Assembly (NCBI GenBank): GCA_965116885.1
Contig: OZ220741.1
Location: 4,608,001 to 4,672,000 of the forward strand
Source of the DNA: Candidatus Latescibacterota bacterium
GTDB taxonomy: Bacteria > Latescibacterota > UBA2968
Direction of reading: 5' to 3'
Length of the DNA: 64,000 bases
Every line of letters begins with the position of its first letter. Positions within the stretch are counted from its first letter, which is position 1. The position numbers were made by a program, and so were the translations under genes. Positions 21,145 through 62,826 of this stretch are shown here, piece by piece. Below the pieces are notes generated by a model. That model made no database searches, was not told the origin of the DNA, and worked only from the letters and a program-made list of their open reading frames with translations.

Positions 21145-21169
<25 letters not shown>

Positions 21170-21195
21170 ATTGCACCGTCTCGCTGAACTTCTGA
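21145..21195. other. Left attachment site (tRNA arm + GCTACCAA core + element arm TGCACCGTCTCGCTGAACTTCTG)
   Basis: Element arm is an imperfect inverted repeat of 62776-62799. Confidence 0.8.
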
Positions 21196-22716
21196 CCTGT
21201 CCGATTCACGACAGGAACGAAATAAAGCGAGAGAAATCTCATCAGGGGTGTAAACGAGATAGTTGATGTGGAGACTTAACAGGTCTTTCTGCTCCTCTGG
21301 TGTGGCTTCATTATATAATTCCTCAAAGGTCGTAAGTTTTTGTTGCATCTGAGCAACGCTTACGGCCTTTTGTTTTTCCTCTGATAGCGTAGCTTCATTT
21401 TCCATCATCTCCTGCTCTATTTCGCTTTTTTGCTCCTCCAGATCAATAATTTTTTGGCTGATAGTTTTTATGCCAATCTTCCTGGAGGCGAGGCTTTCCA
21501 CGAGCACATCCAGTTTCTTCTTAATATCTATAAGAAGTCTCTGATAATTCCTCTGTGTTTGCATCAGGTTTTTCATACGCTCTGAGTTCTTATTTGTCGC
21601 ATCTGCAATAAGCTCTTGGACACGTTTTTGATCTCCGCCGAGTTGAAATAGTCGGTCAATGACCACTCGTTCAAGAGCGGGTGCGGGAACATATTTCATG
21701 GCGCAAGCCCTGTCTCCGCGATGAATCTTGCTCGTGCATTGATAATAACTGTACAGCTTTTTATGACGATTTGTCGAATATACGGGCGTCATGTGAGAAG
21801 AACACCATCCACATTTTGCGAGACCTTTGAGCAAGAAGACGTGCAGGTTCTGTTTTCTGTTTCTATGCGGATCAGACCGTTTGACTTCCATGATCGCTTG
21901 CGCTTTCCGCCACAATTCGATTGGGACAATGGGTTCGTGCTGGCCCTCATAAACCTCACCTTTGAAAATAATTTTCCCGATAAAAAATTGGTTTTGCAGG
22001 ATACGCATGATGCTTGTGTTATTGAACTTCTTGCCCGCACGGACCTGACCTCTCCTGGAGACATACGATTTTGTGCGATAGCCCTTTTCATTTATCACCT
22101 GCGCTGTGGCTCGAAAACTTTGCTCTTTAACGTACGTCTCAAAAATTCTAAGCACCAATTCTCGCTCTACTTCATTCGGTTTCGGGACACCTTTTTCGTC
22201 AGGGTCAACATCATATCCGAGAATCTGTCCACCATTTGTCAGCCCCTTTTCAGCCCTCCACTGCATTTTTTCTCTCGTCCTCTCACTCGTACGCTCCCGC
22301 TCTAATTCTGCCGTCGCCAGAGAAATTGAGAGCGCAAACCGCCCCATAGCGGTTGATGTGTCAAAATTTTCATTGATTGAAATGAATATTGTTTCGTTTT
22401 CTTCCAAAAATTCATGAAGCTGGTAAAAGTCGACGATAGACCGGCTGACGCGATCAATTTTTGTGCATAACACCGCGTCAATCTTTCCCTGCTCAATGTC
22501 TCGAACCATTCGCTTGTATTCAGGGCGGTCTAAATTCTTCCCTGATTTGCCTTCTTCACGATAGATTGCAACGGCTTTCCATTCTTCCTCTGAGGATGTG
22601 GAATCCTTGAGTTCAATATACTTTTGAAGAAGATCAATTTGGGTATCCAGACTGCCGTTCTGAATCTCGGCTTGCAGGTCGGTGGAAACCCGTGCATAAA
22701 GACCACATTTAATCAC
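21148..22716 (-). CDS. Large serine recombinase, N-terminal part (integrated form, 522 aa from GTG)
   Basis: YARVST catalytic Ser, EEGKSGKNLDRPEY, DRVSR, recombinase domain, CGWC...C...C zinc ribbon, coiled coil; GGAGG RBS before GTG 22716. Confidence 0.93.
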
Positions 22717-23462
22717 ATCTACCTCCTTTGCCCTGTATTGTTTTATTTGGGAATTATATCCGATAATAACCATAGAATAGGTTACGAATATATGTCCTGT
22801 TTATTTATTATAAATATACTTAAAAACAATACTTTATGCAATATCATTATTGTATATAATCTCCTTTTATTTATTCGCGACTCCACTTCCATGAATACTG
22901 CTCATGAATGGTTTTCCAACCATCGGAGATAAATAGTTTGGCAGAGATCTCGCAAGTGAGTTGTCCGCTCTTCAGGAGATAATTGGGCATAGGGATTTTG
23001 GAGATTTGGAGGACCTTCATCTATGACCGTAACAGGGATATTGTCCCAGTCGATTTTTTGTCGTTTTGCCATGACCACACCTTTCTTATCAGGTGTGGTT
23101 TTTCCTACTCCCTGATATTGTTATTAGGGTTTTACTGCGGTTATTTTTCGAGTCTTATTTGTGTTGCACATCTTGTGTCGGGGCGTCTATTTTGATGCTT
23201 TGTTCTTGTACGACATTGACCAGCTCACCTCGTTGAATGCGCAACGTAATCGAACCCCAAAAAGAGGTGTCAAGATTCTGTAAGAGTTCTGAAATTTTTT
23301 TAATTGTTTGTGTTTTCATTTCTCGATCTCCTTCTGCCGGTTTTTATTGGCGTTTAACTTAATTCGCGTTTCTTGATATGTAGCATCCACTCGTGAGGAC
23401 TGACCCTGTCAGCGTCACTTGCCCCAGTACAGGGAATGCAGGGCATCATTGGTCTCGCCTAA

Positions 23463-23671
23463 AAAATAAGCCATATAAAAATAGATTTCTAATGCAATTA
23501 AGGGCAAATAACGTTAAAAAATGAACCGTTGACTCAATCAGACGCATACGGGTAGCATCTATTGTAAAATAAGCCCTACGAAAATAGATTTCTAATGCAA
23601 ATAACAAAAAATATCGTTAAAAAATGAATCATTGGCTCAAATAGACGCAGACGGACGGGTAGTATCTATTG
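23463..23671. repeat. Diverged ~103-bp tandem duplication (2 units)
   Basis: AAAATAAGCC...AATAGATTTCTAATGCAA...CGTTAAAAAATGAA...GACGCA...GGGTAGYATCTATTG twice. Confidence 0.85.
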
Positions 23672-24547
23672 ACCCTTTGATCCCGGCATAAATATCCCGT
23701 GCGCCTGCATGGGACAACGCCTGCGATGACATCATCTATGGTGTCGTTTTGAGTACAATACACAAGCCCGTTGATCACAAACGATGAATAGGTATGGAGA
23801 TGGGGTAAAATGAGCCGTTCATCAGACTCATTCATTGACCTGTTTTACACCGATTGATGGGCTTTTTTATTTGATCATTAATGCCAGCGCATGGCAGGCG
23901 TTGGGAGGTTGGCAAGTACGAAGTGAGGCGGAAAAATAAGACTCTACAAGGCAGGATAAAGCCTATACTTTGTATAAAAGAAGCGGGCCGTGTTTACGCA
24001 CGGCCCAACATTTCAAATATGTCTTGGCACCAGACATCTATACGATACCAAATTCAGATGTTTGGGGTAAGCAAAAATAGGAGGATTATTATGCCCCCAT
24101 AGAGCGGTATTTTTTTCGGGTATCGGATGGCTGGGGTAGCATCTATCATCCGTCGCCGCAGCGAATGAGTGATGGTGAGCTTGCGCGGGCAATCAGCGCA
24201 CGTATGAATAAAGAGCTGGCACCACTATGGCCTGCTCCAATCTCGGCTATCAGATATGGATGATTGCCATTTACCTCATGTCGCCGAGTTTGTCGCAAGG
24301 CAGAATATGCGCCAAGGATACTGTTGAGCAGATGAAAATGGTCGTGCAGAGATTCGAGGGAAAGAGGCTGAGGTATTGCGAGCTGGTGGCTTGACAGTAT
24401 AGGCGGAATGTGGTAACGTTGAGGAAAGAAAAAGGCACAAGAAAAGCCCCTCTGGGGAGGGGCTCATCTCAAATAATGACTTGCGGCCAGCAGTCTCTAT
24501 AAATATACAGAACCTCTGACTGGCTCGCAAGCAGAAAGGAGTCTGTC

Positions 24548-24691
24548 ATGACCCCGGGAAAAAGGAAGAAAGATAGCCAGCTTGCCCGTGCTATTGTCAA
24601 GAATATGCGTAAAGAACTGGCACCACTCATCCGAACTGTCAAGCACAGAGAATATGCCAAGAAACAGCCTGCTAACACGCCAAAGCTATAA
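24548..24691 (+). CDS. Small basic protein (47 aa)
   Basis: AAAGGAG RBS; MTPGKRKKDSQLARAIVKNMRKELAPL...; related peptide at 24165-24263. Confidence 0.45.
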   Translation: MTPGKRKKDSQLARAIVKNMRKELAPLIRTVKHREYAKKQPANTPKL

Positions 24692-24697
24692 AGAGTA

Positions 24698-24976
24698 TTA
24701 CTTTTTTGGCGTAAATCCGTGTTTCTTCAGAATCTTATTGATCTCTGCCTGAGCTTTGGCCTGTTTCAAGATCCTCTCTATCTTTATATCTATCGAAGAT
24801 TTCCGATTTCTAAATATCTTCGATAGCCCCAAAGATAGTATTCCTAAACCTGCGACAATCAGATTTTCACTTACGGTTTTGGACAGAGACCTTTGATTCG
24901 CCTCAATATCTACAAGGGTCTTTATACTCTCCAACCCCAATGGATCATCTTGTTCTGTTAGGTCTTGTTTCGCCAT
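24698..24976 (-). CDS. Small hypothetical membrane protein
   Basis: AGGAGG RBS before MAKQDL; central hydrophobic segment. Confidence 0.6.
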   Translation of the reverse strand: MAKQDLTEQDDPLGLESIKTLVDIEANQRSLSKTVSENLIVAGLGILSLGLSKIFRNRKSSIDIKIERILKQAKAQAEINKILKKHGFTPKK

Positions 24977-25004
24977 GCTATATCCTCCTGATAGCCTGCC
25001 CTTG

Positions 25005-25844
25005 TTACCGCCGACTATCGGCTCCTCTTCTAGCAACATTGAATGAATACGTTTCGTTGTTGCCCTTAGAGATTGATGTAGCATAAATCCCCGCAAAGTT
25101 ATCTGCATATCTCTTATCTTTCTTCAAAAAAGAAAGAGAATAAAAATAGGCTTTGGCATAAGCTTCAGCATAGGTATATCTCTTGCTGTTTGACCAGCGC
25201 GTATCATGGAAATAAGATCTGTACCACCCTTCAGCAAAAACCTCCGCATACTCTTGCGTATAATCCCCTGTTATGGCTACCGCATAGCCATAAGCCTCCA
25301 ATGGGCCCATCCTCATCTTTTCTTGCCCCTCAGCATAAGTTAGTGCAAACTTATCCGTCTTCCCTTCACATTTTGAACTTGCATAGACATCCGCACTTTT
25401 TGGGCTCAAACCATAGAATGTCGCTCCATGGGCGTAATGCTTTGTGTAGTAAAGTATCAAATCCATAGACGCTTTATAGCCCAACTCTTTTATCTTTTTT
25501 ATATTTTCTTCTAGCTTTACTGCCCCTTCAGCGTAAGCTATAGCATAGACATCACTGCGCCCCTGACTCTTTTGCTGAGCATAATTAACTGCATAATGTT
25601 CGCTCCGCCCCCAATCTATATTTTTCGCGTAACTTTTTGCATAGATCGTGTCTTTGCCTGCATCTAACATTTGCAAGTAATGCGTTGCAAAAACATGAGA
25701 CTTCCCTTGTTCTCTCAGGTCATCATAGGTGCTCCCATAAACCTGAGAGTGGTAAAAAACATTGATCTGTGCATGGAAGATAATGAGAAGCGAAAGAACC
25801 GTTATTCCTGCAATAAAACAATATGCTATAATGCGGTTTGACAC
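25005..25844 (-). CDS. Membrane-anchored protein with YAxxYA helical repeats
   Basis: GGAGG RBS before GTG 25844; N-terminal TM; repeats such as YAKSYA, YAVNYA, YAIAYA, YAEAYA. Confidence 0.7.
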   Translation of the reverse strand: MSNRIIAYCFIAGITVLSLLIIFHAQINVFYHSQVYGSTYDDLREQGKSHVFATHYLQMLDAGKDTIYAKSYAKNIDWGRSEHYAVNYAQQKSQGRSDVYAIAYAEGAVKLEENIKKIKELGYKASMDLILYYTKHYAHGATFYGLSPKSADVYASSKCEGKTDKFALTYAEGQEKMRMGPLEAYGYAVAITGDYTQEYAEVFAEGWYRSYFHDTRWSNSKRYTYAEAYAKAYFYSLSFLKKDKRYADNFAGIYATSISKGNNETYSFNVARRGADSRR

Positions 25845-26071
25845 GGGACACCTCCCTGGTGAGAGAAGCCGCCGCACCCGTAGAGCATTTGACACAAAGC
25901 ATGTTCTTATATACATTTGCGTCCTCATTTTTATGCTATGGTGGATGCGACGGCTAAATTGTGACGCTACGTATTCGCCTTCTGCTGGGGGTCCCTGCAC
26001 GGATCCTCAGCTTTTTTTATCTATGTGATGCTCTGCATTTTCAGGCATAATTATTATGAGAGGAGTTTGGC

Positions 26072-35241: not shown

Positions 35242-35425
35242 ACTTTGCAAATGAGGTGGATTTACCCCGTTTTGGTGGCGTATTTAGGGCATTGATATAC
35301 CTAATTCTGTCACCAATTTGCCCTCAAGCGAAATGTTAAGGGCAAAAACCCCTCGTTGCGATTCTCCCAATTTTCGGGCACAAAAACCTTGACAGGTATT
35401 TGTCCACCCCCGAAAGGAGATCGCT

Positions 35426-35830: not shown

Positions 35831-35839
35831 GGAGACGCC

Positions 35840-41000: not shown

Positions 41001-41140
41001 GTCGATCATCACCTATCAACGGGCTTTTTTGCGTGAGCAGTATTGGCATGCGTCTGGGCGGGGCTGGCAAGTCGATCATCACCTATCAACGGGCTTTTTT
41101 GCGTGAGCAGTATTGGCATGCGTCTGGTGGGGGCTGGCAA
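41001..41140. repeat. 70-bp tandem duplication (2 units, 2 mismatches)
   Basis: 41001-41070 versus 41071-41140. Confidence 0.95.
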
Positions 41141-41535
41141 AATGACACTGCCCATCAACATGTTGATGGGCTTTGACGAGCTATGAGTGAAGGGAACACC
41201 TATTTTTTTGTTCTGCATGGGATATTTTCGCTGTTCGGCACGCCCAGGGCAATAAACAGCCCATTTCTCATAGCCTAAAAAGTGTGTCAGGGGTACCCTG
41301 GAAGCCATTTTTTATGTGTCCAAGCCTACAAACTGAGCCATTTTTTGTGTGTCCCAGGTCCGCAAACTGGCGGCTTTTTTTGCAAAAGCACGTCAGAAAG
41401 AGCACAAAATAATAGATTTCTAGTGCAAAGAAAAAAAAATGCACGTTTTTTGCCACTGCAAAAACATTTGACAATATCTCAAGGTATGTTTGATACTCTT
41501 TGGGCCGTGTTCATAGCACGGCCCGCTCTTTTTGC

Positions 41536-42916: not shown

Positions 42917-43033
42917 TGGAGTTACCCCGCTTTCGTGGATAATTTAGGAGATTCATCCTAATCATTCTGCGCCATCAGTTTTTCATAGGTGATGGGTGAT
43001 TTATTTATGCTATTATCCACCAAAATGGGTAAT
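42917..43033. mobile_element. Miniature IS3 derivative (one end degenerate)
   Basis: TGGAGTTACCCCGCTTTCGTGGA end; body shared with 56032-56150 and 60607-60724. Confidence 0.75.
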
Positions 43034-44901: not shown

Positions 44902-47900
44902 TCAGTTATCTACCCGCTTTAGATTCAGGATGACAGGCTCAGCTGGCCTGGCATTAGGGTGCGTTATGATGGTACAGTTAAGTGGAATCAGCCCTTCAGA
45001 TCCTATCGCAAGTTTGGGAGACGGCAGGGTGTACGCATCTGCCTGCGTGACATCAACGCGGTAGCCTATATCGGCGAGCGATTGGATCGTGATCGCGCTG
45101 ATTACAACAACTCTACCGTGTGTGGGTGTCATGAGTTCGTTGCCGAATACGGACTGCCGCCAGTGAGAATCCTGGCCCCCTACAAATGTGTTCTCCACCG
45201 GCACTTTCGCACCCGTGTAGCCCGATCCACCAGCACTATTGAAAGCCGCGATCGCTTTTGGTCCTGAGAAATACGTGTCGGGCAGGGGAACAACGCGCCC
45301 GCTATATAAGTTCGTCGGGTTCTGTAGCCGATTGTAAGCATCTTCTCTCCACGGTCTAACGCCGAATCCCAGCGCGTGCCCCATCTCGTGCAGAATAACG
45401 TCTCCCAATCTTGTAATATCCAGGTCGTCCTGGTCAAGCTCTATTCGGGATGCGAACGGCAGGACGGACGGAACGCGAAAGAGTACCGTGCTCGCACGGC
45501 CGAGCACTTTTCCATCTCCGTCAATTGGAACGGCTGACACATAGATCACCAGATCATCGACAACTTCGGGGGCAGTGGTTCCCGGGTAACGCTGGTTCAA
45601 TTCATATTGATCGTTACTGGACAACTTATGGTTGGGGATGTCGTGCGTGATGATCTGCTCCCAACGCTCGGCAGCGGTTTCAAATGCCGTCTTCACCGTC
45701 TCAGAAATGTTGCCGACAAAGACAAAATCGATATCGAAGGAAGACGTTCCATCCTTCGTCGCTTCGGCAGTTGCGGAGCGAAGGCCCGTTAAGCTGCCGC
45801 TACAATCCGTACCGAGATATCCGTAATCAGCCTCATAAGTGGTGCCCGGCTCGAAGAAGTTGGAGGCTGAGAAAGTTGACGATGTCGTAATATCCTGGGC
45901 AGAATCCTCCGCATTCGTGAAGGTGCTGCACGCCTCGGCCCACTGGCCGATATTCGTCTTGTGCCGGATTCTGAACTGGTAAGCCCGGTCTTCATTGGCC
46001 GCGAAGTTATCGGTGAATCCGAGCGTGAAGCTATCGCCGCTGATGCTCAGGGTGGGAGCCGATAAGGTCGGCGTCTGGATAGTCGCGTTGAAGTTTGTTG
46101 AGGCGGTCGCACCCCAGGGATCCGTCGCGGTTACGGTAATGGTCGCAGTGCCAGCGGATAGTGGATCAATCAGGACATATCTACCGATCATCTCTACGGT
46201 CGCGGCGGTACTGTTATTTGACGATGCCGTATATCGCAGGCGGGAATCGTCGGGATCGCTGAACACATGATCTGTTGTAAACAACCACTGGCGCTGGGTA
46301 GCACCACCCGCTGGAATCGTCACATCTTCGATGCTGCTTAAGACAGTCGGTGAGGCGTTGGAAATCGTCACCTCCGCCGAACGAGACCACGCGCCCTCTC
46401 CTTCGTCGTTATTCGCCCGCACCTGCACCTCATGGCGGATGTTCCTCACCACGATTTTTGTGATCGTTGCACTCGTGCCGGGGCCCATATGCGACCAGGG
46501 CATAAAGCTACTGCTGCCCGCCCGATATTGTATGTCATAGTCATTGATGTCGGGACCGGTGTTGGTCGGCTCGGTCCAGCTCACGATCAGATTTTTTTTA
46601 TAGCCAAGAGCGTCACCCGCCTCAATTTCAACCTGCGGCGCAGACGGCGCCCTGGGCGGTTCGTTCACATCGGTCAAATGGATTGTCACATCAATGAAGG
46701 CATTGCCGCCACGACCGTCGTCTGCTTCCACAGTCACCACATAGCGGTCCAAATCCTCGTAATTGTATGTGACGCCCGATCGGGTGCGAAGTTGACCGTT
46801 GCTTGAGTTGATGGTGAATGAACCGGCATCAGATCCGCTGAGGCGATAGATCAGGCGGTCACGGTTGGGATCGGTGGCACTGACCGGATGCTGGATATTT
46901 CGATTGGATGCCGTGTTCTCAGCCACGCTGCGGGAGGTGCTCGCACCGTCGTCGAAGGTCGGATCCCGGTTAGGACCCGGTGGTGGCGGTGGTGGCGGTG
47001 GCGGCGGTGGTGGTTGTGGTGGCGGTGGTGGCGGTCTCGGACCACCGCCTCCCCCTCCACCCCCTCCTCCTCCCGACGGCACAGAGGTGCTCCACTCGCT
47101 CGACTCAGACCATTCACTCGTGCCTTCCTCGTTCGTCGCTCGAACCCGGATGTCGTACTCTGTATTTTGCGAGAGATCAGTCAAACGCATCGACTTTTTC
47201 GTGTCGTCATATACCACACTGGTAATCTCATATTCCGCATCAATGAACGCATCACTATCGGCTTGTCGGTATTGCACATCGTAGTCCGTGATTTCAGGTC
47301 CCGTGTTTACAGGCTCGGTCCAGATCACGGTCAGGCTCGTCGGAGCAATTGCCGAGACACTCGGTGGAGCAGGCTGCATAGGCGGTTCGTCGATGTCATT
47401 GATGGTAATACCTACAGCAAGACTCGCCTCACCACCTTCGCCATCACTGACATCGACAGTGATGGAATACGTATCCTTTTGCTCAAAGTTATATGTGCCT
47501 TTTGTCTGAATTTGTCCTGTGCTCTCGTCTATGGCAAAACTGTCTGCATCAGCACCACTGAGGCGATAGGTCAGCGTATGGCCTTCAGCGTCACTGGCTG
47601 TGATAGGATCACCAATGGCCTGTCCAGGTGCGGTATTCTCATCTATGGAGAGTGCCACAGGAGGCTCAGACGGGAAGGTGGGTGCGCGGTTGACCACTTT
47701 GCCGAAGCTATCGAAGAAGAGCAGAAAATCGGGTATCCCAATCTCGCCATCCACATTCAGATCGTATTTGGCCTCATAAGTATCTTGACCTCTTCGAGAA
47801 CCAAACACATCGACAAAGAGCAAGAAGTCGGGGATCTCAACTGTTCCATTCCTGTCAAAGTCCGGAGAAGGCGGTTTGGCAAGCTGCAAGGTAGCACTCA

Positions 47901-48417
47901 GATCCAGCGATACAGTCTCGGTCTGTCCCCCTCGCACGAGTCTTGCACGCACCAGCAGTATATCTGTACCCGAAAATGCCTCTGTTGTGAGAAAGTGAAT
48001 TGCGCCGATAAGACCGCTGCCTGGACTGTTAGCCGATAGGGTTATCCCGATATTTGCAACGTCCTTGCCTGTAAGTGCAGAGGTGCCAGACACGATATTG
48101 GATCTCTTAAATGCTTCGTAAGCAACCTGAGATGGATCAAATTCAAAGCGCAGGAAGAGATCGCTCGCATCCCCAATATCTGCACCGAAGATTTGAATGG
48201 CAGCTGTGCGATTGGGTAAGACATCGAGGGAGGCGATGGATTGATCGCCTTCGGAATTATCTAAATCGAGAGAGAGGGAAAAGCTGCTGGTCTGGGTGGA
48301 TAGCGACCGCGGGAATAGCAAGAATAAAAGGCTTAGCAGGCTGACAGTACTGAGTGCGAGAGGGAAAAGTTTAACAGCGGATTTAAGCATTTGTTTTAAA
48401 TTGAAAAACATATACAT
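44902..48417 (-). CDS. Large secreted protein: cohesin-like, EF-hand/dockerin-like pair, 2x(cadherin+FN3), Gly/Pro linker, M8 (leishmanolysin-like) metalloprotease
   Basis: DFDRNGTVEIPDFLLF; NRAPTF..SIDEN; VQYR..VRATNEEG; HEMGHALG...SHWR...ELMT. Confidence 0.85.
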   Translation of the reverse strand: MYMFFNLKQMLKSAVKLFPLALSTVSLLSLLFLLFPRSLSTQTSSFSLSLDLDNSEGDQSIASLDVLPNRTAAIQIFGADIGDASDLFLRFEFDPSQVAYEAFKRSNIVSGTSALTGKDVANIGITLSANSPGSGLIGAIHFLTTEAFSGTDILLVRARLVRGGQTETVSLDLSATLQLAKPPSPDFDRNGTVEIPDFLLFVDVFGSRRGQDTYEAKYDLNVDGEIGIPDFLLFFDSFGKVVNRAPTFPSEPPVALSIDENTAPGQAIGDPITASDAEGHTLTYRLSGADADSFAIDESTGQIQTKGTYNFEQKDTYSITVDVSDGEGGEASLAVGITINDIDEPPMQPAPPSVSAIAPTSLTVIWTEPVNTGPEITDYDVQYRQADSDAFIDAEYEITSVVYDDTKKSMRLTDLSQNTEYDIRVRATNEEGTSEWSESSEWSTSVPSGGGGGGGGGGGPRPPPPPPQPPPPPPPPPPPPGPNRDPTFDDGASTSRSVAENTASNRNIQHPVSATDPNRDRLIYRLSGSDAGSFTINSSNGQLRTRSGVTYNYEDLDRYVVTVEADDGRGGNAFIDVTIHLTDVNEPPRAPSAPQVEIEAGDALGYKKNLIVSWTEPTNTGPDINDYDIQYRAGSSSFMPWSHMGPGTSATITKIVVRNIRHEVQVRANNDEGEGAWSRSAEVTISNASPTVLSSIEDVTIPAGGATQRQWLFTTDHVFSDPDDSRLRYTASSNNSTAATVEMIGRYVLIDPLSAGTATITVTATDPWGATASTNFNATIQTPTLSAPTLSISGDSFTLGFTDNFAANEDRAYQFRIRHKTNIGQWAEACSTFTNAEDSAQDITTSSTFSASNFFEPGTTYEADYGYLGTDCSGSLTGLRSATAEATKDGTSSFDIDFVFVGNISETVKTAFETAAERWEQIITHDIPNHKLSSNDQYELNQRYPGTTAPEVVDDLVIYVSAVPIDGDGKVLGRASTVLFRVPSVLPFASRIELDQDDLDITRLGDVILHEMGHALGFGVRPWREDAYNRLQNPTNLYSGRVVPLPDTYFSGPKAIAAFNSAGGSGYTGAKVPVENTFVGGQDSHWRQSVFGNELMTPTHGRVVVISAITIQSLADIGYRVDVTQADAYTLPSPKLAIGSEGLIPLNCTIITHPNARPAEPVILNLKRVDN

Positions 48418-48475
48418 ACCCCGAGTTGTGACGTAAAAGATTGCAAAATGTCCATACAACTTGAGTTATGTATAT

Positions 48476-48490
48476 GCAAAAATCGTGCCA
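48476..48490 (-). promoter_or_regulatory. Sigma-54 -24/-12 promoter for the surface protease gene
   Basis: TGGCACGATTTTTGC on the minus strand. Confidence 0.85.
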
Positions 48491-48872
48491 GTTTGTAATA
48501 AACGAGCTAATTCCTTGCGGATGAAGGAGTTGAAGCATATTCGGGATGATTCAGAGATTTTTGAAATGTCGCAGAATAATACACAAAAACCACAAGGAAT
48601 CGCATATACGTTGCGTTATATGTGATATAAATATTTATTTGTGAATAATTTATATGGAAAATAGAGGTGGGATATAGCGGGTGTGTTGCAACTTCGATAC
48701 ATGTCGCATTTTACAACACATCTGACAAATGCGCCCTCATCCGGGGGACCGGTTTAAGAGGTTACAGGCAGCAGAAGGCGGTGCATCGCAACTGGAGACA
48801 AAGACTGGCTTGTGGCTCGGATGGCAAAAGTACGGCATTCGACCAGATCTCAGTCCTGATCGTCTGTGCAGT

Positions 48873-50684
48873 TCAATCCCTGGCGATGGCGATGTCGTAT
48901 TTTTTTAACTTCCGGTACAGAGTCGCCCGATTAATACCCAACGCCTGGGCGGCCTGAGCAATGTTGTTGCCCGTGGCCTCGATCGCGTGGATCAGGGCCT
49001 GACGCTCGATCTCGGTCAATGGCAGGATCGCCTGTGGTGCCGAGAGGTCTCTTACCAAAGCAACGGCTGGCGATAGCTGAGACGGCAGATTATCTGCTTG
49101 CAGCACCCCGGTCGTCTCTAACAGCACAGCGCGCGCTATGGCGTTTTCCAGTTCTCGCACATTGCCCGGCCAATCGTACTGTAGCAACAGGCGCAGGACA
49201 AGGGTGGAAATGTCGCTTATGGATTTGCCGGCCTGGGCAGTGTATTTCTCGAGAAAATGCCTGGCCAATAGGGAAATATCTTCATGCCGATCTCTCAGTG
49301 GTGGAATCGTGATGGGGAAGGCAGCGATGCGATAGAACAGATCCTGGCGGAACGTGCCCTCTTTTACTGCACGCTCCAGGTCCTTGTTGGTCGCCGTTAT
49401 CACGCGGATGTCGATAGAAATGGGAGCTGTTCCTCCAATCCGCTGGATTACCCGCTCCTGCAAGACGCGCAACAGCTTGCCTTGCATGACATACGGCATG
49501 TCGCCGATCTCGTCGATAAAGAGCGTGCCGCCATTGGCGCGCTCGAAGGCCCCGATTCTCTGCTTCGTGGCTCCTGTGAAAGCCCCTCGTTCATGTCCGA
49601 ACAACTCGCTTTCGATGAGTGTTTCGGGAATGGCGGCGCAATCGAGGGCCACGAACGGCTCATCCTTGCGTGGGCTGTTGGCGTGCAATAAGTTGGCGAC
49701 CAATTCCTTGCCGGTGCCGCTCTCGCCGCAAATGAGTACCGTGATATCGCTTTCGGCGGCCTGCTGCATCAGCTCGTACACCTGCTGCATTACGGAGCTG
49801 GTGCCGATCAGGTCGGGAAATAAACTGATCGTCTCCAACTCGTTGCGCAAGTGATGCAACTCGGCTTTCATCTGCTCGGTCTCAATGGATAACTTTTTTT
49901 CTGTGGTGATGTCGCGGAAGACGAGCACGGCACCTTTCAAAATACCTTCCCTTCCTCGCAAGGGTCTGCCGCTGAGGCTGACATAAATGCCTTCGGGCTT
50001 CTGTGCGTTGCGTATGAATAGCTCAATATCGTCAGTGGCCTTGCCCTTCAGAGCAAGCATCAGTGGACTCTCCTCCACGGTGAAGAACGTCTTTCTATCG
50101 GATTTAAAAATACCGTATTTTTCGATCCATTTGTAGATATCCTGATCCAGCGGAGAGTCGTCGTCCATCCACTGCGCGCTCAAATTATTAAAAAGTGGCA
50201 CGCCATTTTCATCAAAGGCGACCACACCCTCCCTCATGCTGTTGAATACGGTTTTCATGAGTCGGGTGAGATCTTTGTATTTGTTGATTATTCGCTTCAA
50301 CCTGCTTTTCGTCTCGTGCATCTCAAGGGCAGTCAGGATATTCAGGTTGAGTTGTCGCTCCTCAAACGGCCTCAGCACATAGCCGAAGGGGTTGGCTGCC
50401 TGCGCTTGTTGCAACAGGTCTCCCTCAGCTTCGTCAGTCAGATATAACACGGGAACGTCGAACCGGTTGCCGATCTGCTCGGCTACTTCCGGACCGGTGA
50501 TCTCCCCTTCGAGACAGAGATTAACCAGGGCCAGGTCTGGATGCGTGTCCGCGGCTTTTTCAATGGCTTGATGCCCGCACGAAACTGTGGCACACACCAT
50601 GTATCCCAGGTTTTTCAGGCATTCTTCAAGGTGTGTGGCACCGGAGGCATTGTCTTCGACAATCATTATCTTTGTGTCGGTCAT
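48873..50684 (-). CDS. Sigma-54 enhancer-binding protein (receiver-like, PAS-like, AAA+, Fis HTH)
   Basis: [34 protein letters not shown]-terminal HTH. Confidence 0.93.
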
Positions 50685-51014
50685 ACTGTTCGCGTCCTGT
50701 TAGGGTGATTTTTTTGTACTTTTTACACACTTTTACAGTTTGATACCCAAATAGGTCCAGATTTAGGATCAACCCATCATTTTTGTTGTAAAATGCGACA
50801 TGTGTTGAAATTGCAACACATTCTCTACTTCCTATCTCCGGTTTTTCCATAAATCACTTATAAACATATGTTTGTTACATATCCTAAATACAGTGAATAT
50901 GCATTTTCATGTGGTTTTCAGCGTCGCATTCTGCAACATTCCAAAAATCTCTGAATCATTCTGACTATACCCTAACTCCTTCATCTACAAGGAATTAGCT
51001 CGTTTGTTACAAAC

Positions 51015-51029
51015 TGGCACGGTTTTTGC
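51015..51029 (+). promoter_or_regulatory. Sigma-54 -24/-12 promoter for the LRR/FG-GAP gene
   Basis: TGGCACGGTTTTTGC. Confidence 0.85.
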
Positions 51030-51278
51030 CTTTGTACAGACGAGAGAATATGGGAATCATATACTAAAGTGTCAAGATCAGAACAATATACTTGTCATTG
51101 AGAATTTATAATCGCATAAGCGGAAAAAACTGCGGGTGGACCCGGTGGTGATAATAACAGGGACCAAATACCGGGTATAGTCCATACCAGGTAAAAGTAG
51201 ATATAGTCACACACATCCGACTTATGCGAAACGATTTGTCATTTTGCATAATACTCATATAAAAAAGAAAGGTGTCGT

Positions 51279-53417
51279 ATGAAGCGTTTTTGTATTGTGC
51301 TTGTGGTCATTACAAGCTGTCTATGGACCTGGCTACCTCTGGCGCATACATCACAAGTAAGACCTGTGCCGGACTTTGATCAAAACGGCACTGTGGATAT
51401 TTCAGACTTTTTGCTCTTTGTCGGCAAATTTGGTTCAAAACAAGGCGATGAGACGTATGAAGACCGATTCGATCTGGATGGCAATGGCACGGTTGACATT
51501 TCAGACTTTCTGATCTTCGTCAAGGATTTTGGCAAAGCATCTCCTGAAAGTGGTGATGAAAACGACGTGAATATACCAGATGCCAACCTGCGTGCTGTAA
51601 TAGCAGACAGCCTTGGCAAAGGGCGAGATGAGGCCATCACACGGGCAGAGATGGCGAGCCTGACGCACCTTGAGGCACAGGGGGCGAACATCAGCGATTT
51701 GACCGGGTTGCAGTTTGCTACCAATCTGACATACCTGTGGCTTACTGGCAACCAACTAACAGACCTCTCTGCGTTGTGTGACTTGACCGACCTGACAGAT
51801 CTGGTTCTTTTTTCAAACACAATAACAGATATATCCGCGCTATCTAACCTGACAAATTTGGGACACCTGAATCTTGCTGGCAATGGCCTCTCCGATATAT
51901 CCACGCTGTCTAACTTAATAAACTTGGAATGGCTGTTCCTTGCCGACAACACAATAACAGATATCTCTGCCCTATCTGATCTGATCAATTTGACAGGGCT
52001 GGATATTAGCAATGCCACCATTACAGATATCTCTGCCCTGGCTAACTTGATCAACCTGACAAACCTGGGACTTAACGATAACTGTGTATCAGACCTCTCT
52101 GCACTGTCTAACTTGACAAATCTGACATATCTGAATCTCAGCGGCAATAGAATCACAGACCTTTCGCCATTAGTGACAAATACGGGATTGGGTAGTGGCG
52201 ACGAGGTCGATGTGCGGAAAAATCCATTAAGTGCCGAATCGCTCAACAGACACATACTTACCATTCAGAGCACAGGCGTTAAGATACAATTCGACGACCA
52301 GTTCGTATTGGGATGCGTCCCCATACTTCCAAAGAATCTTTCCGTAGATACAGGAAGTTCTCACACTCTACAGGCCAATTCTCTGTATGTTGATCATGAG
52401 ATAATAAGACGCGGAGGTAGTGCTGGCGTGGTGTATGCCGATTTTAACAGAGACGGTCATATTGACATTTTTTATGCACCAGGCGGAGGTTCAGCAGAGC
52501 CTACTCCCGCAGAATTGTATCTTAATGATGGCGCAGGATGTTTCTCCCTCGACACCAATTTCTTTAATGGAAATCCACCGGGTTTGGTGCATCCGAGAAA
52601 GGCTTTGCCGGGAGATTTTAACGGGGACGGGAAAATGGACATCTTCGCGTTGGGTCACGGGTACGACGCCCCACCCTTTCCGGGCGAAGCACCTTATGTC
52701 ATTCTTTCGTCAGGTGACGGCTTCGTATTGGGCAAAGGGTTAGACACACTTATTGGATATCATCACGGCGGCGCATCAGCCGATATTGACAAGGATGGAG
52801 ATATAGATGTATTTGTCACTAATTCACCCTTCGGCACGCCATTCTTTCTTATTAACGACGGCACGGGATCATTTACAATAGATATAAACCGGACTGAGGG
52901 CCTTGTGCATAGACAGCTATATACCGCTGAATTGGTTGATGTCGATACCGACGGGTTTCTCGACTTGTTAGTTGCGGGTCACGAATACGATCCCATGCCC
53001 GGAGACGAAATGCCGACGCAAATCCTGTGGGGTGATAGCACAGGTATATTTAGTACAGCTAAGGCGACAGTTCTTCCGGATATTATTGGTCACGGCACTG
53101 TTGTTGACATTGACGTAAGCGATACAGATGAGGACGGAGATAAAGATATTGTCGTCAACCGAACCTCCGATTCCGCTGTGGGTAACGACTGGTATAAGGG
53201 ATATTATTTGCAATTAGTTGAACAAAAAGCCCCGCGCAGGTTCGAGGACAAAACTGCGCAGTCAATTTTCAAAAACGAAGATGCCAATGCGGATTGGATC
53301 ACCTGGATCCGAATGTGTGATTGCAATGGCGATGGACATGTAGATATCGTGGTTGACGATGCCGGCAGAAACTTGATCTGGGAGAATGACGGAACCGGCA
53401 CATTTAGGCCACGCTGA
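51279..53417 (+). CDS. Secreted EF-hand/dockerin-like + internalin-type LRR + FG-GAP/VCBS repeat protein
   Basis: 22-aa LRRs (LTNLTYLNLSGNRITDLSPL); ADFNRDGHIDIF, GDFNGDGKMDIF, ADIDKDGDIDVF. Confidence 0.9.
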   Translation: MKRFCIVLVVITSCLWTWLPLAHTSQVRPVPDFDQNGTVDISDFLLFVGKFGSKQGDETYEDRFDLDGNGTVDISDFLIFVKDFGKASPESGDENDVNIPDANLRAVIADSLGKGRDEAITRAEMASLTHLEAQGANISDLTGLQFATNLTYLWLTGNQLTDLSALCDLTDLTDLVLFSNTITDISALSNLTNLGHLNLAGNGLSDISTLSNLINLEWLFLADNTITDISALSDLINLTGLDISNATITDISALANLINLTNLGLNDNCVSDLSALSNLTNLTYLNLSGNRITDLSPLVTNTGLGSGDEVDVRKNPLSAESLNRHILTIQSTGVKIQFDDQFVLGCVPILPKNLSVDTGSSHTLQANSLYVDHEIIRRGGSAGVVYADFNRDGHIDIFYAPGGGSAEPTPAELYLNDGAGCFSLDTNFFNGNPPGLVHPRKALPGDFNGDGKMDIFALGHGYDAPPFPGEAPYVILSSGDGFVLGKGLDTLIGYHHGGASADIDKDGDIDVFVTNSPFGTPFFLINDGTGSFTIDINRTEGLVHRQLYTAELVDVDTDGFLDLLVAGHEYDPMPGDEMPTQILWGDSTGIFSTAKATVLPDIIGHGTVVDIDVSDTDEDGDKDIVVNRTSDSAVGNDWYKGYYLQLVEQKAPRRFEDKTAQSIFKNEDANADWITWIRMCDCNGDGHVDIVVDDAGRNLIWENDGTGTFRPR

Positions 53418-56150: not shown

Positions 56151-56161
56151 GGGTCAATATG

Positions 56162-58284: not shown

Positions 58285-58313
58285 TAGCAAAAATATTTCT
58301 TTTAGTTCAAGAG

Positions 58314-58341
58314 CAGACCCTACAGACCCTACAGACCCTAC
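58314..58341. repeat. 9-bp tandem repeat (CAGACCCTA)x3
   Basis: Directly visible. Confidence 0.85.
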
Positions 58342-58474
58342 CTACCGCCACTACCGCGCCGGCGCTTACCGCAGTGTCTGGACTATCTTTGGATACTCGC
58401 TTCAAGGTAGCACCAAGTAATTACCAAGCAAAATTACCCGGTTACCGCATTTTTCGCCAAAGGAGCCTCTTAAA

Positions 58475-59491
58475 ATGGACATTGAAGAGATCGTACAGAG
58501 ATTGAACGACGAATCTGACCGATTCAAATTTGGCAAGCTTCAAGAGATCCGAAAAAAGTACCTCGGGCTCCAGCAAGTGCCGGTTCTAACGCCATTCGGG
58601 AAGCAGGCCACATTCCCTGACGAAGCCTATGCCTATCATGTCGGAGGGTATAATGAACTCCAGTTCAACGTCGGTTTCGAGGAAGATTTTCGCTGGGGCG
58701 TTGCGATTTCATTGCAGGCGACTCAATGGATACCTAATCCAGTAGAGAAATTATCTCCCAAGCTTGACAAGTTGAGCGAGTTCATCCGTTTGCACGGAGA
58801 CGACCACCTAAATGGGTTCCTGATGTGGCACAGGCACCCCTCCGAAGGCCGGAGCGCTGATCGTTCTCCAGAAGTCGTTCCTCGACGTTTATATACCGAT
58901 GAAGTATTTATCTTTCTCGGAAAACACGAACATATTGACTCCTTCGACGCTGATACTATCCTCCACGATTTCGACAGGTTATTGCCCCTTTATGAATATG
59001 TCGAGTTCGGGACATCTGATTTTCCTATCCTCGAAGACGAATCCGGCTTCGCCTTCAGGCCCGAACACCAACCGAATAGACCGGACAGACGATATCGGAT
59101 GAACGTAATACGAGCGACAGGTCCAAACGAAGTGTACCTCCGACATAACCAGATACAGGACGTTCTTGAACAGGAGCTTCGTGCTGAAGTCGGAAATCAG
59201 GTGGCATCAGAACACCCAGACGGGATCGGCGGTCGCGTAGATTTGATTGCCCAGCGTGGGGACGATTTAGAATTCTATGAGATCAAGATTGGCGGTTCTG
59301 TACGTTCGTGTATTCGCCAAGCTCTCGGCCAGCTTATGGAGTATGGTTTTTGGCCTGGCGCTGCGCGCCCTGCAAAACTCTTCGTTGTTGGAGAACCATC
59401 CCTTGATGGGAAAGCGGAAGAGTACCTCCAGAGCCTGCAAGAAGAGTTCCGCATCCCGATTTACTACCGGCAGGTCGTCATTGAGAATTAA
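58475..59491 (+). CDS. Putative PD-(D/E)xK nuclease
   Basis: H..IQ..L...E....RVDL.....FYEIK....IRQALGQLMEY. Confidence 0.7.
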   Translation: MDIEEIVQRLNDESDRFKFGKLQEIRKKYLGLQQVPVLTPFGKQATFPDEAYAYHVGGYNELQFNVGFEEDFRWGVAISLQATQWIPNPVEKLSPKLDKLSEFIRLHGDDHLNGFLMWHRHPSEGRSADRSPEVVPRRLYTDEVFIFLGKHEHIDSFDADTILHDFDRLLPLYEYVEFGTSDFPILEDESGFAFRPEHQPNRPDRRYRMNVIRATGPNEVYLRHNQIQDVLEQELRAEVGNQVASEHPDGIGGRVDLIAQRGDDLEFYEIKIGGSVRSCIRQALGQLMEYGFWPGAARPAKLFVVGEPSLDGKAEEYLQSLQEEFRIPIYYRQVVIEN

Positions 59492-59782
59492 TCGTGTCCG
59501 CTAGAGGATGCTTGGAAGAAGGAACCGAGCCAAGCCGCTGCCTTGTGGGTCGAGATAGCCGAGGCCAACGCCCGCGCCTACGTGAGAGCACTCTATAATG
59601 ACGAGGTGGGGCCGCTCCGGCGCCGTCTACGGTGTTTATATAGCGACCCATCACTTTTGGCCGCTTTCACCATTAGGGCCTTTCCAACCTTTGAGCCTAA
59701 ATATCTGCTCGTTTACTTTTTTGAAAATGCAAGCAGTAAGTATGCAGGATGTTACTCACCCAGTAGATTCCGACTGCAAAGG

Positions 59783-59888
59783 GTGGACTTGACCCGTTTT
59801 AGTGGACAACTTATCTCTTTCAGAGAAAGGAGTCCAAAATGAGAAGAAAAAGATCATATCCAACAGCATCTAAAGCGGGGTAACTCCA
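59783..59888 (+). mobile_element. Internally deleted IS3 derivative (IRL, RBS, first orfA codons, IRR)
   Basis: TGGACTTGACCCGTTTTAGTGGACA...AAAGGAG..ATG (MRRKRSYPT)...AAAGCGGGGTAACTCCA. Confidence 0.75.
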
Positions 59889-60434
59889 TTAGTAACGCAT
59901 TCTCGCCATACTAATGTATTCTTTCTCCACCACCTCTATTTGTGGTATGCCCTGGTATTCTGTTATTTTTCCTCTCACACAAATCTGTTTTCCTCTATAT
60001 GTCTGTTCTGGTTTGTCAAATTTCTGACGATACCGACCCCATATCACAACAGTAAAAACTTGATCTGGGTACGGTTTACCAAGGTTCAGATAGGTAGGAG
60101 ATCCTCTGCTGTTCTCAGCGTAATGGGTACTCTCAACTTTACCGCAGACAACTCCTATTTGGCCGATATGATTAACAGCATCTTCAGCTATAATTTTACT
60201 ATCCTCATAAAAATCATCGCCCTGTACATCATAACCCATTCTATCGGCCCGCTTCAACCCCAAGCTGTCTTCCGCGTCATTCGATATCGCTTTAGTTCCG
60301 CCATCGACATAAGCTGATGCCTTCTTCGTTTGAGGGGCATCCAGTCTTTCTACCTCCGTTTGTCCACACGACAAAAACACTGCGCCAAAACTAAAGATCA
60401 ATGAAACGCACAACAAAAATCGGAGAATATACAC
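59889..60434 (-). CDS. Lipoprotein with OB-fold-like domain
   Basis: FLSC lipobox-like; VCGKV...TYLNLGKPYP..FTVVIW...VRGKITEYQGIPQI. Confidence 0.75.
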   Translation of the reverse strand: MYILRFLLCVSLIFSFGAVFLSCGQTEVERLDAPQTKKASAYVDGGTKAISNDAEDSLGLKRADRMGYDVQGDDFYEDSKIIAEDAVNHIGQIGVVCGKVESTHYAENSRGSPTYLNLGKPYPDQVFTVVIWGRYRQKFDKPEQTYRGKQICVRGKITEYQGIPQIEVVEKEYISMARMRY

Positions 60435-60606
60435 ACATCCCTCCCTGAAAAGTTACAGTGATACTCTATAACAAATGATAGGTAGGTCACAAGCAAAAAG
60501 CCGAATTAGCCTACACTTCCATTTCACGATCCCGCCAGCGAGAATATAGTAGGTTGCCATTTCTCTGTCCACCAAAACGAGTCGAGTCTATGGAGCAAGT
60601 CCAGCT

Positions 60607-60724
60607 TGGAGTTGCCCCGCTTTCGTGGATAATGTAGAAGGTTCACGCCAATCATCCAGTGCCATCAATTTTTCATAGTTGATCAGTGATTTATGCTATT
60701 GTCCACCAAATCGGGACAAGTCCA
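60607..60724. mobile_element. 118-bp miniature IS3 derivative
   Basis: TGGAGTTGCCCCGCTTT...TGTCCACCAAATCGGGACAAGTCCA. Confidence 0.8.
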
Positions 60725-60928
60725 TTTAGAAAAGTTGGTATAATTTTTGCCCTGCTCTGTTAAAACGGGAATTACCCACTTTAACCCCCTAACTTTGCAT
60801 AAAGTAAAACCCCACAATCTAAGTGATTGTGGGGCTTCTTTGTTAAAGGACTGCCTTTAACAACCCCCCTTTGTCAACATTTTTTAGAAGTTTCCCGTTG
60901 ACAAACTCTTTTTTTACCGGTCATACTT

Positions 60929-62038
60929 TTATTGAAAATCTCCTCTTTCTTCAGCAATTTCGATGGGTTCAAAATATGCATATAGAGCCGCACGCCGTCC
61001 GTGAGCAAACGATATTTCTCTTAACATATTATCTTGAACTTTGTGTATTATATCTGCGGCAGTTGTTCTTGAAATTTTTAGCCCTTTAGCGATATCAGAT
61101 ATTGAAAAAACAGGTTGGGCGAATATAAAATCGAGAGTCTGGATGGCATACCGAGATGAGGTCTTTTTGCTGATCCACGATTTGCGTTTTTCGTACAATT
61201 CCATGATTGACCGTGCTTTGCGTGTATTCTCTCGCGCTTGGGCTGTAAGAGCTTTAAGGAAAAAGGCGCACCACCCAGTCCAATCGTCGTCTTGTGACAC
61301 AGCCAACAGATGATCATAGTAAACTTCTCTTTTTGCCTCAAGATATTCGCTAATATAAAAATCTGGCGAATTGAGAATTTTTCTCTCAAGAAGAAAGAGA
61401 GGTACTAACATGCGGCCTATGCGACCATTTCCGTCCAAAAATGGATGCAACGCTTCAAATTCTGCGTGTGCTATGGCAAGCTGTACAAGCATGTCCCATC
61501 TGCCATTACTATTAAGAAACTTTTCCCATTTAGTCATGCCATCTTCCAATTTGTCGGGGGTCATAGGAATAAATTTAGCTGTCTCTTTTGTGCAACCGGG
61601 CGCACCTATAAAATTAGGTATTCTTTTGTAGTTTCCTGGGTCTTTATTTGTCCCGCGAACACCTTCCATTAAAATAGCATGTGCTTCTTTAAGCAATCGG
61701 CCACATAAAGGCAACTCGTCCATTCGATTAACGGTGTGCAAAACTGCATTGCGATAGTTTAAGACTTCTTTTATTTCACTGACCTTCTCGCCAACACGGT
61801 TTCCTTCTGCTTCGTATTTTAAAACCTCGCCAAGCGTCACTTCAGTGCCTTCAATTCGATTGGTCAACACCGCTTCTTGGACCGTAAGCGGCACAAGCAA
61901 CGTATGTGGGTTAGGCATAACATCAAGAAGCCCCTTAAACTCACCTAAAGCTGAATGGGCAGGGCCAATCAGTAATTGCAGTCGTTCCCAGTCAAGATTC
62001 TTGGGTGGAAATTTCCCATAGTGGTATTCTATTGGCAT
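60929..62038 (-). CDS. Fic family protein
   Basis: HPFLDGNGRIGR; EAVLTNRIEG N-terminal motif; C-terminal HTH. Confidence 0.93.
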   Translation of the reverse strand: MPIEYHYGKFPPKNLDWERLQLLIGPAHSALGEFKGLLDVMPNPHTLLVPLTVQEAVLTNRIEGTEVTLGEVLKYEAEGNRVGEKVSEIKEVLNYRNAVLHTVNRMDELPLCGRLLKEAHAILMEGVRGTNKDPGNYKRIPNFIGAPGCTKETAKFIPMTPDKLEDGMTKWEKFLNSNGRWDMLVQLAIAHAEFEALHPFLDGNGRIGRMLVPLFLLERKILNSPDFYISEYLEAKREVYYDHLLAVSQDDDWTGWCAFFLKALTAQARENTRKARSIMELYEKRKSWISKKTSSRYAIQTLDFIFAQPVFSISDIAKGLKISRTTAADIIHKVQDNMLREISFAHGRRAALYAYFEPIEIAEERGDFQ

Positions 62039-62330
62039 TTCTGACCCTCCTTATTTATAGCAGTGATTATACGAGGAAAAATATGTGTAATTTGATACAT
62101 TGTCAACTCCCAAAAAGCAAAAAAACACTTCCCAAATAGGCAGTAAAATCGCTTGGTTTGAGAGGGTTACGAAGTTATCTTAATGGAAATCGTAGCCCTT
62201 ATTTTTATGTGTAATGAGGGATAAAAAAGTAGAGCTTGTGTTCTACCCAAACACAAGCCCTAAATACTCAATCAAAATGGGGTAACTCCAGTTTTATACA
62301 CCAAAATGAGTCAAGTCTGATTTATTTTAT

Positions 62331-62804
62331 TCAGCTATCAAGTCCTGATAGTACGCCCCTCTCATAGCAGGCACTTTGACCTGGATATTGCTCCTTGATC
62401 ATTTGCCAAAACTTCCTTCTTTGTCTCTCCTCGCTCTTAACTTGGAATAACGACTGCAACCGATAGACAGTCAGGAAATCCAGTCTTGGATCTGAGTCAT
62501 CTATCTTCAAGATAAAGTCTTTAATTTTCTCATCCAGTTCGAGCAACTGTAAAATCAAGCGGGTTTTCGTTCTCGAAATGCCCACCTGCTTTGCAAGTGC
62601 TGTCTGAGATTGAACATAGCCCTTATCAAGAAGCTCGTGATAATACAAAGCTCTTTTGAGATAATTGGGATGGTGCAGTTTTTGAGTGACCACTTGTTTT
62701 TGTGGCTTATGACCGATAGCGATTATAGGCTTCTGGTTCCTGCGGAAGTGGTGGATGGGGAAGTGATCCCACACACAGAAACGTTCAGTGAATGGTGCAG
62801 ACGG
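62331..62804 (-). CDS. Detached C-terminal part of the serine recombinase, int(C), with HTH
   Basis: Reading frame open up to the att core; ALYYHELLDKGYVQSQTALAKQVGISRTKTRLILQLL; in frame with int(N) across GCTACCAA. Confidence 0.75.
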   Translation of the reverse strand, partial: PSAPFTERFCVWDHFPIHHFRRNQKPIIAIGHKPQKQVVTQKLHHPNYLKRALYYHELLDKGYVQSQTALAKQVGISRTKTRLILQLLELDEKIKDFILKIDDSDPRLDFLTVYRLQSLFQVKSEERQRRKFWQMIKEQYPGQSACYERGVLSGLDS

Positions 62805-62826
62805 GCTACCAAAAAATAAGGGAACC
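62776..62826. other. Right attachment site (element arm CAGAAACGTTCAGTGAATGGTGCA + GCTACCAA core + host arm)
   Basis: Inverted similarity to 21172-21194; core identical to 21163-21170. Confidence 0.8.

Follow-up and report, generated by a model that had tools for sequence, protein, structure and literature searches.

A large serine recombinase gene probably split by its own attP, with proposed state-dependent isoforms, in a tRNA-Met island of Latescibacterota

The window analysed here, a stretch of 64,000 nucleotides from Candidatus Latescibacterota (assembly GCA_965116885.1, contig OZ220741.1, positions 4,608,001 to 4,672,000), contains an integrated genomic island whose recombinase gene, int, encodes a large serine recombinase (LSR). 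It is very likely that this gene crosses the attachment site of its own element (attP), and the best overall explanation of the data, which we regard as probable, is a split LSR gene whose two isoforms depend on the state of the DNA. When joined, either in a free form or in a tandem array, the gene is predicted to encode a protein of about 675 amino acids consisting of an LSR core, a flexible linker, a β-hairpin motif and a helix-turn-helix (HTH) domain of the ParB/Noc type. As read from the sequence, attP is located in the part that encodes the linker and takes in the final bases of the tRNA gene. On integration at the tRNA-Met 3′ end, int is cut after codon 518, four residues encoded by the tRNA gene are added and the tail is left stranded at the far end of the island. 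Relatives show the same split at tRNA-Gln, tRNA-Asn, tRNA-Glu and another tRNA-Met.

The integrated gene, its detached tail and the empty sites

The sole tRNA gene in the window detected by ARAGORN is tRNA-Met(cat) (21093-21169, plus strand), which the empty-site alignment identifies as the integration target. Its 3′ end lies in the core of attL, GCTACCAA (21163-21170), an identity block that holds the crossover. The int gene (21148-22716, minus strand) runs into the tRNA gene from the opposite direction. Its open frame spans 21148-22773, and the start is probably the GTG at 22716, which is preceded by AAGGAGG and matches the ATG of relatives in the alignment; the resulting 522 amino acids equal the length of the database entry P0002. 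As the initial annotation had read it, the protein ends with ...EVQRDGAIGS-GGGI followed by a stop codon, where the sequence encoding GS and everything after it is the reverse complement of the tRNA-Met 3′ end and the last four codons (GGGI) come from its antisense strand. Since the final seven bases of the tRNA lie inside the core and are identical in the attP of the element, tRNA-Met is whole after integration.

Judged from its sequence, int is a complete LSR. Pfam assigns the Resolvase (PF00239, E 1.8e-35), Recombinase (PF07508, E 1.7e-14) and Zn_ribbon_recom (PF13408, E 3.1e-14) domains. The catalytic residues Y26, R28 and S30 are invariant among 29 aligned sequences, as are the zinc cysteines C321, C324 and C346, while C357 is nearly so. 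The coiled coil is present in the AlphaFold2 model of the relative P0039, with helices at residues 362-409 and 415-448 followed by strands at 483-497. The Pfam domains and the P0039 model support the earlier view that the short enzyme keeps its catalytic, recombinase, zinc-ribbon and coiled-coil parts. Among NCBIfam families, int scores highest against CcrB, the staphylococcal cassette recombinase (E 1.8e-53), with 182 bits against a family cut-off of 900.

At the far end of the island, the attR core GCTACCAA (62805-62812) adjoins the detached tail of int, 157 codons on the minus strand (62334-62804). The tail frame is open from 62849 to a stop codon at 62331-62333 and reads ...FFGS-PSAPFTERFCVWDHFPIHH... 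(also given as PSAPFTERFCVWDHFP). The Gly-Ser codons GGT AGC stand in one phase at both cores, so the two parts join in frame; the products are 522 amino acids in the integrated form and 675 (518 + 157) in the joined form. Both the frame and the lengths agree with those originally proposed. The tail has no conserved start codon of its own: four of the 17 intact copies contain no ATG, GTG or TTG in their first 70 codons, no start position is common to all 17, and the GTG at 62774 is kept in six. The tail is under purifying selection, with a median dN/dS of 0.226 (range 0.107-0.352) over 136 pairs from the 17 copies and 138 codons, a sample made up of copies with an intact frame only and leaving out L009.

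The core repeat by itself is not significant: with 1.45 copies of GCTACCAA expected in the window, three are present, a count that 21 of 100 shuffles also attain. The extent of the island was instead obtained from empty sites. When 21 genomes of the genus, including the one studied here (G000), were searched with 1.26 kb to the left and 1.19 kb to the right of the core, the two flanks were found 8-9 bases apart in seven of the 20 others (G046, G033, G049, G035, G041, G038 and G051), that is, with the empty-site junction at the core that the initial annotation would predict. In an alignment of four of these sites, tRNA-Met ...CCCGCTACCA(A) runs directly into AAAATAAGGGAACCG...CGGTTCCCTTTT, a hairpin with a T-run terminator. 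The adjacent flanks in relatives imply an island of 41.6 kb with exact ends, and its body between the cores, at 21171-62804, is given by the flank comparison and a domain scan. Integration is seen by its outcome, an exact insertion with an 8-bp identity block. The same tRNA-Met site holds other contents in G050 (about 32 kb), G043 (7 kb) and G034 (2 kb); these differing occupants indicate that the site is used repeatedly.

The native terminator of tRNA-Met, GGGAACCG...CGGTTCCC followed by a T run (62813-62850, plus strand, from the empty-site alignment), now lies 41.6 kb from the tRNA gene owing to the insertion. On the tRNA strand, within the coding region of int and about 155 nt beyond the end of tRNA-Met, a hairpin followed by UUUUGUUUUU is found at 21325-21380 (-25.3 kcal/mol, z -4.2; none of 200 shuffles folds as well). 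This hairpin probably serves as a substitute terminator for the tRNA gene, which was cut off from its own. A 52-nt unit of this hairpin also follows intact tRNA-Gln genes and adjoins attR sites in relatives, and its inner stem varies with compensation (GTTGC/GCAAC versus GCTGT/ACAGC). A piece translated as KQKAVSVA..KLTT upstream of several attR sites was considered as a remnant of deleted int genes and rejected, as it is this 52-nt hairpin; the occurrence of the hairpin behind intact tRNA-Gln genes assigns the piece to the host flank.

Relatives carrying one or both parts

Full-length homologues across both parts, as one would expect of a split gene, do exist. P0039 (658 amino acids, 55% identity to int) and P0078 (666 amino acids, 46% identity) are single chains that combine the LSR domains with PF17762, and they are two of 120 int relatives among the matches listed. 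Both align with the whole tail of the window, and their junction reads GS-P or GE-P; the proline directly after the core is invariant in 12 sequences. A profile search of 1.84 billion representatives gave, among the matches listed, seven of 150 proteins that extend to tail positions of at least 600, the profile having kept 659 positions so that the recombinase part dominated the search. Of 269 gathered proteins, 11 match a hidden Markov model (HMM) of the tail at their C-terminus, namely P0039, P0078 and nine more recombinases. Moreover, two chromosomal remnants in relatives (L072 and L083) contain the last 65 or so codons of int and the tail in one open frame.

The same split was found in other islands. 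Nine pairs of island ends from the taxonomic order were compared, seven of them on one replicon or contig and two matched across contigs of G039 by tRNA type. All nine int genes end antisense in a tRNA gene (three Met, two Gln-ttg, two Gln-ctg, one Asn and one Glu), and the int-tail join is in frame in all nine. The cores are TTGGTAGC or TGGTAGC at tRNA-Met, TGGTTGCCC at tRNA-Gln and TGGCTCC at tRNA-Asn; those of G000a, G039 C84/C108 and G002a were read by eye, the longest-common-substring search having chosen unrelated 7-8-mers. Together with the empty sites and the one-chain homologues, these in-frame pairs support the proposal of the initial annotation that attP lies inside int and that the HTH-bearing tail is exchanged upon integration.

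Not every site reflects one clean insertion. At the attR flanks L074 (G044a) and L019 (G039 C187), about 27 bases resembling the end of int (..VQREDIFGS) stand between the host terminator and the core, and earlier insertions or deletions have probably reshaped these two sites. A second, decayed island of the same family is present in the genome studied here, between tRNA-Pro and tRNA-Gln(ttg) (G000:C1:3847462-3856441). Only the last 115 or so codons of its int are left; its tail is 78% identical to that of the window and without an internal stop, and the int-tail join is in frame at TTGGTTGCCC.

More distantly, L085, a contig of a Gemmatimonadota metagenome-assembled genome, carries a tail homologue (38% identical over residues 1-150) after ..FPGS-P.., with no int-like sequence, so that a further phylum shows this split layout; a search of the L085 genome at E ≤1e-20 gave no int. 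A tail-only search for longer relatives yielded 315 candidates, none of which scored, a weak negative as the method relies on shared words. Viral contigs gave 487 pattern matches to the tail profile and no relative. Among metagenome contigs, 45 loci were obtained; only L027 and L028 are close relatives, and the remaining loci match just tail residues 48-105, the generic ParB-type HTH stretch.

Fold of the tail, a possible mechanism and competing explanations

The tail comprises two recognizable parts. The C-terminal part (62394-62666, minus strand) is an HTH domain of the ParB/Noc type, as indicated by PF17762 (E 1.3e-5, 25.7 bits against a cut-off of 22.6), by TIGR00180 (E 6.6e-7, below the cut-off and matching only positions 104-159 of that family) and by Foldseek. 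The model of the window tail, with a mean predicted local distance difference test (pLDDT) score of 77.7, shows a β-hairpin at residues 18-31 and then helices. In a Foldseek search of the PDB, ranks 1-11 were all ParB, Noc or Spo0J structures (best 7ng0, E 6.1e-3), with KorB and SopB lower and nothing at E ≤1e-3. The Pfam scan of the 171-aa tail frame revealed no N-terminal ParB/Srx (CTP-binding) domain; hence, the tail is not a ParB protein and borrows the HTH only. It shares the HTH fold and PF17762 with the DNA-binding domains of ParB, Noc and KorB, but here these are fused to a recombinase and lack the CTPase domain according to Pfam. The part ahead of the HTH contains the conserved motif FCVWDHFPIHHFRRNQKPIIAI (62715-62780, minus strand), a predicted β-hairpin defined by the alignment, the tail model and the complex prediction. 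Within FCVWDHFPIHHFRRNQKPIIAIG, the motif residues W13, I18, I29, I31 and G32 vary little or not at all among 12 sequences, and it is this motif, not the HTH, that is best conserved among distant relatives.

The AlphaFold2 model of P0039 (37-row alignment, mean pLDDT 87.4) has a confident recombinase core and a compact helical domain at about residues 565-657 with pLDDT values of about 90 or more. Between them, the junction stretch (residues 504-561) has pLDDT values below 50, which places attP in DNA encoding a flexible linker. When int residues 20-537 and the tail were predicted as a complex, the interface score ipSAE was 0.70 (three runs, 0.69-0.71); none of three controls scored above 0.00. 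The pass mark applied to such complexes is reached by 116 of 157 solved complexes and by 2 of 215 mismatched pairs, counts that are rough for custom alignments. At least 74% of contacts are shared between the runs, and the partner pLDDT is at least 73. The predicted interface involves tail residues 10-20 and 26-31, i.e., the conserved motif, and int residues 363-396, 469-476, 504 and 510-519. On the int side, these correspond to the helix after the zinc ribbon (363-378), the outgoing and returning base of the coiled coil (388-396 and 469-476), residue 504 and the last strand (510-519, PDEISLALFR). On these predictions, we lean slightly towards a real docking of the tail on int.

These features suggest how the split might work. 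The tail would be made only when the ends of the element are joined, either in a circle after excision or where two units of a tandem array meet, and the state of the DNA would thereby decide which isoform is produced. In the long form, the hairpin motif would pack against the zinc-ribbon domain and the coiled-coil base, a hinge that is held by directionality factors in other LSRs, and the HTH would contribute a DNA contact; this form would be set for attP x attB recombination. The short form, with its hinge free, would be available for attL x attR recombination, perhaps aided by the product of a 56-aa gene directly upstream of int (22905-23072, minus strand). Given its predicted docking at the hinge, the tail may act in cis, as a module, at the point where directionality factors exert control. 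That it truly affects directionality is a doubtful, though reasonable, suggestion from the models. More speculative still is the complete scheme of a detachable C-terminal directionality module, in which the clamped long form of the circle only integrates and the inserted short form can excise; the DNA state would then set the direction instead of, or besides, a separate factor.

The 56-aa gene is a candidate for such a directionality factor or a regulator, judging by its position and retention. It is kept in all seven islands compared, even in the distant G002 island, whose int is 51% identical, and its product has no credible Pfam match and belongs to no known family. Just ahead of its start, an inverted repeat, CCACACC...GGTGTGG (23075-23098), is likewise present in the seven islands. 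The spacer length of this repeat varies, which is more in keeping with an RNA hairpin than with a binding site for a dimer.

Several observations weigh against a split gene with a directional tail. The distant G002 pair shares a core of only 5 nt (GACCC), and in G044a the core identity continues upstream of the tRNA end and blurs the crossover point. The nine end pairs are relatives of one another and represent conservation rather than nine independent events. The inferred attP and attB have no clear dyad symmetry, with at best 10 of 24 positions and no clear centre. In the genus, there are 27 near-full-length tails, 19 of them without an internal stop, compared to six full-length int genes; G033 alone contributes five tail matches, and no int was detected there at E ≤1e-40. 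Evidently, the islands lose int first as they decay, or they accumulate in arrays. Many of the surplus tails may have been orphaned recently; otherwise, the tail would have a separate use outside the proposed model. As to the docking, the two chains of the complex are halves of one polypeptide, and one-chain relatives are included in both alignments. Furthermore, AlphaFold2 leaves the tail motif of P0039 unplaced, at odds with the complex prediction.

The unplaced motif also favors an explanation that accepts the split and takes the tail to be unrelated to directionality, as a DNA-binding add-on for the free circle, with isoforms that recombine alike; for example, the ParB-like HTH might tether or partition the circle, or repress int or neighboring promoters until integration. 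Such a role would suit a tail whose largest folded part is the ParB/Noc-type HTH and an enzyme that, even when truncated, retains every canonical LSR domain, and the HTH_36/RP-C replication-protein-like gene of the island makes a free replicating stage conceivable. However, the strongest conservation lies in the five hairpin residues named above and not in the HTH, and the motif is predicted to bind the hinge region. In addition, no repeated candidate operator was found, and the inverted repeat beside the 56-aa gene has a variable spacer. We consider this explanation possible, if somewhat unlikely. It is improbable that the one-chain frame is a relic or a matter of tandem arrays, with the island now fixed and only the short form made, and equally so that the long database proteins stem from inner junctions of such arrays rather than from circles. 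The chromosomal int-tail remnants L072 and L083 and the frequency of island arrays and orphan tails in the genus would agree with that history. Yet the same tRNA-Met site is empty in seven genomes and differently filled in G050, G043 and G034, and relatives occupy several different tRNA genes, which together require recent movement through the joined form; the purifying selection on the tail is also contrary to a relic.

Finally, the tail could be an unrelated, broken ParB-like gene at the edge of the island that is joined in frame by chance. The 8-bp core proves nothing alone, a single in-frame join has a probability of one third, and an open reading frame with the GTG start at 62774 can be drawn. 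This explanation is nevertheless very improbable, because natural one-chain proteins align across the junction, all nine pairs are in frame, the drawn start is present in only six of the 17 copies, four of the 17 have no start at all in 70 codons, and no ParB N-terminal domain is seen in the tail frame.

Known systems and further island contents

The initial annotation knew of no described serine-recombinase case, which is incorrect. McMurdie et al. 2011 (BMC Genomics 12:287, PMC3146451) report that the serine recombinase gene dsiB always overlaps attL and suggest that it is complete perhaps only on the circle or beside a neighboring island. DsiB is a CcrB-like serine recombinase of islands at the tmRNA gene (ssrA) of Dehalococcoides (PMC3146451). 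As described there, those islands and the present one have in common an LSR gene beside attL whose frame continues, in antisense, into the 3′ terminus of a gene for a small stable RNA, a stop codon outside the island, variable ends and tandem islands. The likeness is one of layout and description, with CcrB being the best NCBIfam match of int and DsiB being called CcrB-like. The target differs, however, being a tRNA gene here and ssrA in the DsiB islands. Whereas the account given for DsiB leaves the restored C-terminus unidentified, here it is a conserved 157-aa module with a predicted docking motif and a ParB-type HTH, and one-chain proteins exist. The DsiB islands also have a partner small serine recombinase, DsiA, whereas no second Resolvase-domain (DsiA-like) gene was detected among the 44 island and flank frames scanned here. 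An LSR gene split by its own attP is therefore already published as an observation; a description of the size and make-up of the tail was not found. Full-text searches on serine integrases with attP in the gene or with tRNA targets brought up no LSR with a detachable ParB-type tail, and neither did passages of a large LSR survey (10.1101/2021.11.05.467528), whose main text lacks the word tRNA.

Genes that are altered by integration are well known from tyrosine recombinase systems. In the integration-dependent immunity of mycobacteriophages such as BPs, attP lies in a regulatory gene, and integration changes the C-terminus and activity of the protein. In those phages, the split gene is the repressor and the integrase is a tyrosine recombinase, whereas here the split gene is the serine integrase itself. 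For the myxophage Mx8, integration reportedly alters the C-terminal region of IntP, to go by the title of the 1996 work of Tojo et al. The Mx8 IntP/IntX system has attP inside the integrase gene (as cited in the Islander paper, PMC4383910), and so do the SSV-type ('suicidal') integrases (PMC7253208). As presented in these sources, both are tyrosine recombinases with a different chemistry and a different control of direction, and the likeness is confined to attP in the integrase gene; in addition, SSV-type integration leaves two inactive parts of the enzyme, whereas here the catalytic enzyme stays whole.

With respect to the predicted contact, the directionality factors of the SPbeta integrase are described to bind the base of the zinc-ribbon and coiled-coil regions, and a fusion of integrase (Int) and recombination directionality factor (RDF) has been engineered (PMC11722253); phiC31 Int-gp3 is another engineered integrase-RDF fusion (PMC5737554). 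In the descriptions of these fusions, a C-terminal module acts in cis on the hinge between DNA-binding domain 2 (DBD2) and the coiled coil, the same general region as the predicted contact of the tail. The engineered fusions are man-made and fixed, whereas here the module would be natural and would be added or removed by recombination.

LSR directionality is an active question and is relevant to the use of these enzymes in genome engineering. The published control is a separate factor that grips the coiled-coil hinge, which engineers mimic by a C-terminal fusion; nature appears to place a C-terminal module there that is attached or detached by recombination itself. The system offers a testable set of the 522-aa and 675-aa proteins and four short sites. 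It also bears on target choice, as a 2014 database paper states that targeting of tRNA 3′ ends is unknown for the serine integrase family (PMC4383910), and Latescibacterota provide examples of it. For annotation, an LSR gene found in an integrated island can lack its natural C-terminus, which matters for integrase mining.

The island further encodes a methylase-HNH protein, the HTH_36/RP-C-like protein, RadC, a Rad52-like protein, a sigma-54 activator, large surface proteins, two GmrSD_C proteins, a DDE transposase and a Fic protein. Within 44905-53414 lie an 1185-aa cargo protein with cadherin, fn3, PKD and leishmanolysin-like parts, the sigma-54 activator, which has a receiver domain, and a 712-aa protein with dockerin, leucine-rich (LRR) and FG-GAP repeats.

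Inverted pairs of TGGAGTTACCCC... and ...GGGGTAACTCCA occur at 42917/44885, 56032/59877 and 60607/62279, and further copies at 35257 and 43494. The pairs flank cassettes of 1.7-3.9 kb, which carry, for instance, the Fic gene or a GmrSD_C gene together with the DDE transposase, and they resemble the ends of transposons. Of the 16 exact copies in the genome, five are located in this island, compared with 0.12 expected, and the bins around the second island of this genome are likewise enriched. GGGGTAACTCCA was considered as a binding site of the tail and rejected, because the inverted pairs start with TG, end with CA and bracket cassettes in the manner of transposon ends.

Other repeats were also noted. 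Two direct repeats of 89 nt (23463-23551 and 23566-23654, 83% identical) are found in an AT-rich region upstream of the int module, and a related piece of 30 nt lies at 41411-41440. A 70-nt unit is repeated in tandem at 41001-41140 with 97% identity and includes a piece that recurs at 23848-23886.

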